DNA of 64,000 nucleotides. Origin: Promethearchaeota archaeon. GTDB lineage: Archaea > Asgardarchaeota > Lokiarchaeia > Sigyniarchaeales > SOKP01. Below, piece by piece: positions 7,545-11,412 of this stretch; within the stretch, counting starts at the first letter, position 1; each line of letters opens with the position of its first letter. Below the pieces are notes generated by a model. That model had not been told where the DNA came from. It ran no database searches and worked only from the letters and a program-made list of their open reading frames with translations. Position numbers and translations under genes: made by a program. Location: positions 61,461-125,460 of the forward strand of contig JAHLWS010000026.1 in the NCBI GenBank assembly GCA_019057795.1. The letters are read 5' to 3'.

Positions 7545-8063
7545 GTGAGCATTATGAGAGAAGAAACTGATTATACTGAAGCCATCGAAACGTACAAAGA
7601 CGATAGTAATGTAATCATTGAACCATGGGGTCGTAGTATCGATCACCTCCGGCTTACAATCATCGGAAAAGATGGAACACCTTATAATAAAGGAAAGTTT
7701 ATTTTCGAAATTAAGTTTCCTGAGAATTACCCGTTTGCGCCTCCCTACGCTTACGCGGTAACCCTCATGTGGCATCCAAACATCGATAGTAGCATACCTC
7801 CCGGGAAGCTTAATATATGTTTAGATTTAATTAACCCCGATTTGGTAGGGAAGGTCGACGCTTCGACAGGGGCGTCAGGTTGGACTCCGTCCAAGACTCT
7901 AACTAATATAATAGAAGCTTTAAAGGGTATGATGCATGTAGAGCCTCCCTTCTTTAATCCTGGAGATCCGCTCAATCACGAAGCGGGCGAACAATATTTC
8001 AGGGCTTTGAAAAAGTTTCAAGCTAAAGCTAAGTCCTGGACATCTAAGTACGCCATGGATTGA
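7545..8063 (+). CDS. ubiquitin-conjugating enzyme E2
   Basis: GTPY..G.F...I.FP..YPF.PP, HPNI, G.LNICLDLI (catalytic Cys), W.P..T, PLN.EA. Confidence 0.96.
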   Translation: MSIMREETDYTEAIETYKDDSNVIIEPWGRSIDHLRLTIIGKDGTPYNKGKFIFEIKFPENYPFAPPYAYAVTLMWHPNIDSSIPPGKLNICLDLINPDLVGKVDASTGASGWTPSKTLTNIIEALKGMMHVEPPFFNPGDPLNHEAGEQYFRALKKFQAKAKSWTSKYAMD

Positions 8064-9834: not shown

Positions 9835-11412
9835 TTACATGTAAGTTACTATGACATTGTATTTTTTAATCTCTGATTCTACTTTTGCCTTTCCCAGAGG
9901 AGTGAGAGTAATAACATCGTTATTTTTGATTTTTAGAGCCGTCAATTTTATATTTGGGTCTTTAAATTCACCGCTCATATAAGGATTCCAAAGCATTTCT
10001 TTGTTCACCGCATTAGTCATCAACCATAGGATGGGGTCTAAATTATGTCCACTTATTCTCATAGCCTTAAACACATACCCTATGTTCGCATCAAAAGGAA
10101 CAACGATTTGAACATTTTCTTCTCCTTCAATGTCTCCACAAGCAAGGCAATCTTCCCTTTTAATTACATCTAGATGGTCAAATTGCCCATACACCCCATT
10201 ATAATTGATGTAAGGAGGATCCATTGGAGGACCAATATTCCTTCCATGCATTCGAAATAATAATTTTAACGCCTCTTGGGATTGTATGCTAGAAATAATA
10301 GAGCTTACAGATTGAATTGCCGCAATTTTATTTCCTAATATATTTTCCATTTCTTCGAACTTATAATCAGGTCCGAAAGTATCTTTAATATTATCTTTCC
10401 ATTCTTGAATCTCTTCAGGAGATAGGCTTTCTAACTTTTCGGTAGAAACATTTTCATCGAACACTCTTTTTCTTAAGTCTATCAATTCTTTCTGTGCTAA
10501 AGCCTTCAGTTTTACTACGTCATCGTCCACGTTCATATCAGGTTTAAAACCGTATTCTTTTTCGAATACTACTTCCGCTTTTATAACGCAGTGATTCCTA
10601 TTTCTTGGAAGCCCTTTTAAAGTGCACGCCGCGACCAATTTATCGTCTGCAGGTGGAATAGGAACCATACAACGATAACAAGGAGTTATGTCCAAAACTT
10701 CACCAGCATATTTTTTATCAAATTCTTCTTCAACTTTTTTTCTAACTAGTCTTCTGAAAGGCTCAAGTTTCTCTTGCTTTAACCTTTCAATTAAATATTC
10801 TAGTTGCTCTATTTCGTTCTGCGCATCTAAGTACTCTGGATTGTCAAATTCCCACATTTTACTGTCGACTATTTTTTCGATCTCGAATTCTCTCTTTTTA
10901 TATTGAAGACCAGAACCTTCTGGAATAACTATTTGTACATGTCCTTCAAAACCTACGGTTCCTCCCTCTACCATAGGTTTTTTTATCCTTAAAGAAATTT
11001 TATTCAAATCTAACCTAGCGTTAAAGTTATCCAAAGCGGCAATAATAACATCGCATTCTTCATAAACCGACATTTGTAATTTTTGGAGCTTTTCAAAATA
11101 AAAATCGATGTTTAAAAAAGGATTCATTTCCTTTAATCTTTCTGCGGCTACTTCTGCCTTAGGACGACCTTCATCGCCCGGCTTGAACAACATTTGACGG
11201 GAAAGATTGGAGGTTTCGATAGTATCTAAATCTACCAATACTATTTTCCCAATTCCCATTAAGGCAAAGTCTTTTGCTATTTCACAACCCAAAGCCCCAA
11301 CTCCGACAATCATAACGCAACCTTTGCTAACAATCTCTTGGTCCCACCCATCAATTAATTGCTGTCTTGCGTACATCCGCGATTTTTTGATATCTGTCTT
11401 GTTTACCATCAT
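9835..11412 (-). CDS. ubiquitin-like activating enzyme E1 (ThiF/UBA, UBA3-like)
   Basis: YARQ, GVGALG, DLDTIETSNLSRQ, PCYRC, ACT...PR...HC catalytic-Cys segment, CLAC, C-terminal ubiquitin-fold-like domain. Confidence 0.93.
   Translation of the reverse strand: MMVNKTDIKKSRMYARQQLIDGWDQEIVSKGCVMIVGVGALGCEIAKDFALMGIGKIVLVDLDTIETSNLSRQMLFKPGDEGRPKAEVAAERLKEMNPFLNIDFYFEKLQKLQMSVYEECDVIIAALDNFNARLDLNKISLRIKKPMVEGGTVGFEGHVQIVIPEGSGLQYKKREFEIEKIVDSKMWEFDNPEYLDAQNEIEQLEYLIERLKQEKLEPFRRLVRKKVEEEFDKKYAGEVLDITPCYRCMVPIPPADDKLVAACTLKGLPRNRNHCVIKAEVVFEKEYGFKPDMNVDDDVVKLKALAQKELIDLRKRVFDENVSTEKLESLSPEEIQEWKDNIKDTFGPDYKFEEMENILGNKIAAIQSVSSIISSIQSQEALKLLFRMHGRNIGPPMDPPYINYNGVYGQFDHLDVIKREDCLACGDIEGEENVQIVVPFDANIGYVFKAMRISGHNLDPILWLMTNAVNKEMLWNPYMSGEFKDPNIKLTALKIKNNDVITLTPLGKAKVESEIKKYNVIVTYM

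Follow-up and report, generated by a model that had tools for sequence, protein, structure and literature searches.

A long E1-like protein of a Lokiarchaeial genome and its putative ubiquitin-type cascade

The E1 gene and its domain architecture

The window analyzed here, a stretch of 64,000 nucleotides from a Promethearchaeota archaeon (GenBank assembly GCA_019057795.1, contig JAHLWS010000026.1), carries on its minus strand a gene for a long protein of the ubiquitin-activating enzyme (E1) family, hereafter P0001, and on its plus strand a gene for a ubiquitin-conjugating enzyme (E2). We describe the architecture of P0001, its predicted dimer and the cascade to which it may belong. The gene and the elements of the encoded protein are as follows, with conservation given for an alignment of 47 sequences.

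9835..11412, minus strand: long Lokiarchaeial E1 gene P0001, an open reading frame of 525 amino acids (aa) plus stop codon; Pfam ThiF, E 1.3e-55
10918..11412, minus strand: N-terminal part of the adenylation domain, residues 1-165; columns invariant or nearly so
11362-11373, minus strand: arginine finger Y14-A-R16-Q17; R16 kept in at least 90% of the sequences
11287-11304, minus strand: P-loop G37xG39xxG42; the three Gly invariant
within 10918..11412, minus strand: D61, D63, N69, R72, Q73, K85 and D128 of the N-terminal adenylation part; columns invariant or nearly so
10690..10917, minus strand: insert 1, residues 166-241, between the VIPEG strand and TPCYRC; helices 174-186 and 193-239
10669..10680, minus strand: first zinc pair C245-x-x-C248 (TPCYRC); invariant
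10342..10668, minus strand: crossover loop and catalytic Cys domain, residues 249-357; aligns to a segment of yeast Uba1
10624-10626, minus strand: catalytic C263, invariant, in the segment C263-T264...P269-R270...H274-C275
10378-10476, minus strand: insert 2, residues 313-345, about 33 aa inside the Cys domain; long family only
10138..10341, minus strand: C-terminal part of the adenylation domain, residues 358-425, with ILGNKIAAI at residues 358-366
10138-10149, minus strand: second zinc pair C422-x-x-C425 (CLAC); invariant
9838..10137, minus strand: C-terminal ubiquitin-fold domain (UFD), residues 426-525, presumed to recruit the E2; fold matches to UFDs of E1s

Along with G37, G39, G42, D61, D63, N69, Q73, K85, D128, R133 and N137, the five cysteines C245, C248, C263, C422 and C425 are invariant in the alignment. 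The gene is regarded as real because more than 120 database clusters match it with 73-96% identity across the full length. These relatives are listed in public records as 'ThiF family adenylyltransferase' from metagenome-assembled genomes (MAGs) of Promethearchaeota/Lokiarchaeota, and some copies bear the JGI name 'ubiquitin-activating enzyme E1 C'. ThiF was the sole Pfam family matched by P0001; neither insert 1 nor the UFD had a Pfam match by sequence, and E2_bind (PF08825) was likewise without a match in the protein. Both inserts were found in the long E1 family only, and compact relatives are devoid of them.

An earlier note on this DNA, made by reading the sequence, had described a ThiF core with a small catalytic-Cys domain, the motifs YxRQ, CT...PR...HC and ILGNKIAAI, two CxxC pairs, a charged helical insert of about 80 aa before PCYRC, and a C-terminal ubiquitin-fold-like domain. 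This anatomy was confirmed by our analysis: the core gave the ThiF match listed above and its Cys domain is helical in the model, all motifs are present where they had been placed, the insert spans about 76 aa, and the C-terminal domain modelled in isolation matches the UFDs of E1s.

Comparison with sequences of the Protein Data Bank (PDB) gave the highest score to UBA1 with a total of 130 bits (94 for the active and 33 for the inactive domain), followed by UBA6 (110), UBA3 (107), UBA2 (100) and MoeB (82), the single-domain scores of the UBA1 active domain, UBA3 and UBA2 being near-equal. The segment around C263 aligns to the catalytic-Cys segment of yeast Uba1, PLCTLRSFPNKIDH. R16 aligns to the Arg of the inactive domain of UBA1 (YSRQ) and to a Gly of its active domain (YDGQ), and the alignment to UBA3 begins only at residue 32 of P0001.

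The AlphaFold2 (AF2) monomer model of P0001 reached a predicted local distance difference test (pLDDT) score of 79.5 overall, with a helical domain at residues 272-360 and a beta-rich C-terminal domain. The loop around C263 had a pLDDT below 50, as expected of a mobile crossover loop, and insert 1 was modelled as helical with a pLDDT of 51-73. Foldseek placed UBA3 (2nvu_B) first for the whole model (E 1e-25, full length), followed by UBA6 and SAE2. Modelled alone, the C-terminal 100 aa reached a pLDDT of 87 and matched in the PDB, with a Foldseek probability of at least 0.9 and template modelling scores of 0.6-0.68, the UFDs of UBA6, SAE2, UBA3 and UBA1; isolated UFD chains (4w5v_B, 3fn1_A, 2lq7 and 1y8x_B, UBA2 and UBA3 UFDs among them) were included in these matches. 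As judged from alignments and predicted folds, P0001 has the architecture of a canonical E1: the adenylation core carries a zinc site and is followed by a UFD, and a crossover loop bearing the catalytic Cys leads into a Cys domain.

Homodimer prediction and the partner subunit

A single P0001 chain retains the arginine finger together with all ATP/Mg residues, and it has no inactive adenylation domain. A dimer model, which the earlier note had proposed as a check, was predicted for two copies of residues 1-430 alongside three controls and in three runs. The two-copy model scored 0.59 versus 0.00 for the best of the three controls; in calibration, the mark of 0.59 was reached by 20 of 30 proteins solved as same-chain pairs and by 1 of 23 solved as single chains. 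At least 80% of the contacts were common to all three runs, with a partner pLDDT of at least 72. The predicted interface occupies the classical ThiF dimer surface and comprises residues 9-20 (12-17 included), 44-53, 66-78 and 366-413 (within the C-terminal adenylation part, residues 366-382 and 393-413), to which the insert helix 193-231 is added. The pass of the core dimer may reflect model memory, because dimers of MoeB, ThiF and NAE1-UBA3 have already been solved.

In the model, the insert helix 193-231 pairs antiparallel across the dimer axis, and the most confident contacts are 204:204, 201:208 and 197:211. The heptad core of insert 1 is conserved among 27 long sequences, all of which have I201, L204 and I208 as well as either Ile or Leu at position 211. 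Owing to these confident insert contacts and the conserved heptad core, insert 1 is best read as a putative added dimerisation element.

P0001 might instead form a heterodimer with another ThiF-family protein in the fashion of UBA3 and NAE1, as eukaryotic UBA3 and UBA2 both require a partner and the genome, an assembly of 4.95 Mb in 87 contigs, contains eight other ThiF-family loci. The nine loci in total are P0001, the E1 of a classical operon described below, two MoeB-like genes, two loci of UFM1-type operons and three GNAT-linked loci. However, the eight others belong to other systems and offered no candidate for an inactive partner subunit, the arginine finger and the active-site residues are both retained in P0001, and its homodimer model passes the controls and includes a contact between two inserts that is possible between identical chains only. 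We therefore consider a heterodimer quite improbable and continue with the symmetric homodimer.

An E2, an unlinked modifier and a probable second cascade

Three further loci of the same genome bear on the function of P0001.

7545..8063 of the window, plus strand: gene of the candidate cognate E2, 172 aa; Pfam UQ_con, E 1.5e-25; HPN motif; catalytic Cys in NICLDL
G000:C74:80148-80399 (L010:1486-1740), minus strand, outside the window: 84-aa ubiquitin-like protein (Ubl), ending ...TQAGG plus one variable residue, hereafter GG-Ubl
G000:C43 (L003:1018-3286; L013:2009-2806) and L012:1279-1689: classical operon of Ubl, 410-aa E1, E2 and JAMM protease, and a second, paralogous Ubl elsewhere on the contig

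The distribution of the E1, E2 and GG-Ubl genes was surveyed in a sample of 201 genomes. The full-length long E1 was present in 40 of 40 genomes of family f1 (64-96% identity) and 3 of 3 of family f2 (51-56%) and nowhere else in the sample, other Asgard families matching P0001 over the adenylation core only. The E2 gene is convergent with the E1 gene, the two lying 0.7-6 kb apart in most f1 genomes, and E2 orthologues of at least 70% identity were confined to f1 and f2, with weaker matches to other E2s elsewhere. Ubc1, UbcH5 and UBE2T were the best PDB matches of the E2, and UBE2M was absent from its top 60. Compared with Ubc1, the E2 carries an insertion of about 13 residues (NPDLVGKVDASTG, window 7818-7883) between the catalytic Cys and the conserved Trp, which is kept across f1.

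The GG-Ubl is the best ubiquitin-family match of the genome, and its own best matches are ubiquitin and the UBL of Mdy2/Get5. It was detected in 33 of 40 genomes of f1 and 3 of 3 of f2, and elsewhere in the sample only as weak matches in family f27 (E about 1e-6). Its identity amounts to 92-99% within f1, 75-81% in f2 and 63-73% in sister orders of the class, which possess a compact 414-453-aa E1 without inserts as well as the Ubl. In family f29, which encodes a fused E1, and on the metagenome contig L023, the Ubl is 86-87% identical and located 0.7-2 kb from the fused E1 gene. The Ubl is still 86% identical where the E1s share only 44%. By these identities its level of conservation appears to be like that of ubiquitin, which suggests that it has many interaction partners. 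That the E2 and the Ubl could be of the NEDD8 type was also considered and rejected, their best matches being ubiquitin E2s and ubiquitin/Mdy2-type UBLs.

The operon Ubl on C43 has an N-terminal extension and ends in ...STAGYF, and a second, paralogous Ubl elsewhere on C43 ends in ...SVAG. The operon E1 (L003:1432-2664) is about 45% identical to P0001 over the adenylation core. P0001 itself lies outside any Ub/RING/JAMM operon, with only the convergent E2 nearby. The genome thus runs at least two ubiquitin-type cascades in addition to UFM1-type operons, and the presence of a classical Ubl-E1-E2-JAMM operon with its own E1 assigns P0001 to the second of them.

A different assignment would have P0001 serve the Ubls of C43 (ending in ...AGYF or ...AG) instead of, or besides, the GG-Ubl, as a redundant or specialised second E1 for the operon. 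The two further Ubls and the complete operon encoded in the genome are compatible with this, as is the fact that no Ubl gene adjoins P0001 in the window. Nevertheless, the operon is equipped with an E1 and an E2 of its own, its E1 type is present across Asgard families that have no long E1, and the GG-Ubl tracks the P0001 lineage exactly and adjoins the E1 in f29; service to the operon is consequently held to be unlikely. We favour, with a probability of roughly 70%, the reading that P0001 is the E1 of a second, Lokiarchaeia-specific ubiquitin-type cascade, in which it would act as a symmetric dimer on the GG-Ubl together with the neighbouring E2.

On the basis of the sequence anatomy and predicted folds, and of the way in which the three genes are distributed together and arranged in the genomes (synteny), we infer the following course of the reaction. 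Two identical P0001 chains would form a symmetric MoeB-like dimer, in which R16 of each chain enters the ATP site of the other, so that both active sites can work, and insert 1 would contribute an antiparallel pair of helices over the two-fold axis. After trimming of the last residue of the 84-aa Ubl, each active site would adenylate the C-terminal Gly, and the modifier would pass as a thioester to C263 on the mobile crossover loop/Cys domain. The C-terminal UFD would then recruit the E2 (7545-8063) for transthiolation.

Several observations speak against this cascade. The Ubl had no match in 7 of the 40 f1 genomes, which are draft MAGs of 85-99% completeness, and in the present genome no E1 or E2 gene is linked to it. 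Neither the UFD nor either of the inserts has a sequence-level family match, and the monomer confidence of insert 1 is only moderate. The two further Ubls and the second E1/E2 pair on C43 count in the same direction and make cross-talk between the cascades possible.

Apart from the E1 gene, the window contains typical Asgard genes, including those for Ras and Arf-like GTPases, a giant MIT/TPR protein and an E2, and its GC content is low (21-35%).

Orthologues of the E1 and E2 genes contained short insertions of a different kind. In genus g3, E1 genes 68-71% identical to P0001 (L016:444-2060 and L017:497-2116 on the plus strand, L018:2380-3996 and L019:148-1767 on the minus strand) are interrupted within the P-loop codons (GVGAL, insertion, GCEIAKD) by an in-frame insertion of 30 nt that contains two stop codons; the E1 gene of the window has no insertion at the corresponding codons 41/42 (about 11287-11292). 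The g3 insertion forms an internal hairpin of 9 bp, in which species differ by compensatory changes, along with a 4-bp helix GCGU:ACGU that has a 3-nt bulge at each junction. Insertions of 31-32 nt that shift the frame were observed in E2 orthologues of genus g2 (L036 and L037, after codon ~59) and genus g5 (L034 and L035, after codon ~132), where the predicted cuts restore the conserved PENY and VEPP sequences. The host genes are otherwise intact and conserved. At all three sites a 4-bp helix joins the last bases of exon 1 to the 3' end of the insertion and is flanked by two 3-nt bulges, the frame is restored exactly if each side is cut behind the second base of its bulge, and the internal hairpin shows compensatory base changes between species. 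This geometry looks like bulge-helix-bulge splicing of mRNAs, with the insertions as candidate introns, and their occurrence at three sites in two genes of three genera suggests that endonuclease-spliced introns of protein genes are not rare in this family. The only precedent found for a bulge-helix-bulge mRNA intron was that of crenarchaeal cbf5 (PMC2738675), and a recent preprint on Asgard tRNA introns does not mention mRNA introns.

Phylogeny, fused relatives and comparison with known E1s

The careful tree comprised 47 rows and 411 columns (LG+C20+F+G4), with UBA1 representing the eukaryotic E1s; among the 150 best representatives the eukaryotic members were UBA1-like only (0 of 10 Pfam-labelled candidates with E2_bind or UAE_UbL). 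The long E1s of f1 (100/99), the long E1s of f2 (100/99) and the fused E1s of f29 (100/100) each formed a clade, and these three grouped together with a support of 96/87. The compact class-level forms were also recovered as a clade (100/99). P0001 falls within the Lokiarchaeial E1 lineage and the gene tree follows taxonomy, hence inheritance looks vertical and the inserts derived. Both inserts are accordingly derived traits confined to one order and not ancestral ones, and sister orders have compact orthologues of 415 aa.

The same tree bears on whether P0001 could be a sulfur-carrier or SAMP-type adenylyltransferase of the MoeB/UbaA kind, conjugating or thiocarboxylating without an E2. Its predicted homodimer, arginine finger and zinc site are all MoeB-like, and the public name 'ThiF family adenylyltransferase' would suit such an enzyme. 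On the other hand, P0001 possesses a catalytic Cys domain and a UFD, both absent from MoeB/UbaA, and MoeB scores 82 bits against it versus 100-130 for eukaryotic E1s. Separate MoeB-like genes exist in the genome and the E2 co-varies with P0001 across genomes. The earlier note had named grouping with MoeB/UbaA, or lack of a beta-grasp C-terminal domain, as the outcomes that would speak against its reading, and neither was seen: P0001 is separated from MoeB-like rows with a support of 100/100 and the UFD fold is present. A MoeB-type function is in our estimate highly improbable, and an E1 working with an E2 is retained as the preferred reading.

The active domains of eukaryotic UBA1 joined the P0001 lineage in the careful tree with a weak support of 81/94 on a long branch (2.2), and quick trees gave them no firm position. 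The placement is not significant: in approximately unbiased (AU) tests, whose groups were defined with the tree already in view, archaeal monophyly (p 0.105) was not rejected, and neither was a grouping of UBA1 with the operon-type E1s (p 0.084). P0001 might accordingly be an ancestor of canonical E1s. As to the 'homodimeric pre-duplication form' put forward in the earlier note, the homodimer is supported, with a model that passes its controls and with R16 and the active site in one chain, whereas the ancestral form does not, the inserts being derived.

Family f29, which belongs to the same order, encodes tandem-fused E1s of 732-985 aa (L025-L028), and a further fused E1 was found on a metagenome contig:

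L023:1291-3693: fused E1 P0123, 800 aa

The N-terminal half of the f29 proteins keeps YARQ and has lost D63, N69, R72, Q73 and D128. The C-terminal half keeps these five residues, the Cys domain and the UFD, has lost R16 and is devoid of insert 1. The arginine finger is thus retained only in the dead half, which illustrates the outcome after duplication. The two halves show complementary decay as in UBA1, NAE1-UBA3 and SAE1-SAE2; P0001, in contrast, keeps both sets of residues in one chain. The dead half is most similar to the long and compact E1s of the same class. Because the active halves fall in the order clade with the long forms (96/87) and the dead half is nearest to E1s of the same class, the f29 fusion appears, on sequence grounds, to have arisen independently of the eukaryotic asymmetric E1s.

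A fusion of another sort was noted in the database proteins P0195 and P0255 (~412 aa), in which an N-terminal ubiquitin-family domain is joined to a ThiF-family E1 (Pfam ubiquitin and Rad60-SLD).

In a wider and rather doubtful reading, the P0001 lineage, the GG-Ubl and the E2 would constitute a class-wide Lokiarchaeial cascade, the specific archaeal sister of the stem of eukaryotic canonical E1s, with one order keeping both the symmetric homodimer and an independent UBA1-like fusion. If this is true, natural proteins could be used to repeat the step from which the asymmetric eukaryotic E1s arose. That Asgard archaea possess eukaryote-like genes for E1, E2 and ubiquitin is already established, and their bare finding is not new. 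The P0001 lineage offers a probable second, unlinked cascade beside the classical operon and a lineage-specific coiled-coil insert for which pairing over the dimer axis is predicted. It also presents, within one gene lineage, an architectural series from the compact homodimer through the homodimer with insert to the tandem fusion, with which the origin of E1 asymmetry can be tested directly in the laboratory.

Among the known systems, UBA3 (PDB 2NVU, 1R4M and 3GZN) shares with P0001 the two CxxC zinc pairs, the CT..PR..HC segment, the small Cys domain and the UFD. UBA3 needs NAE1. Its arginine-finger segment is absent from the alignment, whereas P0001, for which a homodimer is predicted, retains YARQ; it differs further by its inserts 1 and 2, the missing Pfam E2_bind match and an E2 and Ubl that resemble those of ubiquitin and not UBC12/NEDD8. 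The earlier note had called P0001 a 'UBA3 (NEDD8-E1)-type ancestor', for which the scores, the E2 and the Ubl provided no specific tie to UBA3 or NEDD8. This type assignment, judged from PDB scores and fold matches, was not supported in view of the near-equal scores to UBA1, UBA2 and UBA3, the lack of an E2_bind match, the ubiquitin-type E2 and Ubl, and the position of P0001 inside a Lokiarchaeial lineage that follows taxonomy, and what speaks for a 'UBA3-type' reading is architecture alone.

UBA1, like UBA6 and UBA7, resembles P0001 in the catalytic Cys motif and the UFD and gives the top sequence score. It differs, however, in being a fused pseudo-dimer that contains FCCH, 4HB and a large SCCH as well as an inactive domain, whereas P0001 is a single symmetric module. 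MoeB, ThiF and UbaA share with P0001 the symmetric homodimer and the arginine finger acting in trans, both predicted for P0001, and the four-Cys zinc site, but they lack a separate Cys domain, a UFD and an E2 partner.

The closest published case is the E1-like enzyme of Caldiarchaeum subterraneum, modelled on the NEDD8 E1 (3GZN) with Cys and UBL domains (Hennell James et al. 2017, PMC5654768). The Caldiarchaeum E1/E2/RING cascade was reconstituted and shown to be active, with Asgard homologues placed in the E1 tree (PMC5654768), and a 2024 review repeats this account (PMC11354881). The kind is therefore already known, an archaeal E1 resembling the NEDD8 E1 having been published; our search of the available literature found no description of the long Lokiarchaeial paralogue of the P0001 type, nor a solved structure of an Asgard E1. 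The operon E1s of Caldiarchaeum and Asgard archaea are, like P0001, encoded by a single gene and combine a ThiF core and a zinc site with a small Cys domain and, at the C-terminus, a UBL/UFD. Unlike them, P0001 belongs to a separate, non-operonic lineage with two helical inserts, and pairs by distribution with an unlinked, highly conserved GG-Ubl and an E2 with a loop insertion.

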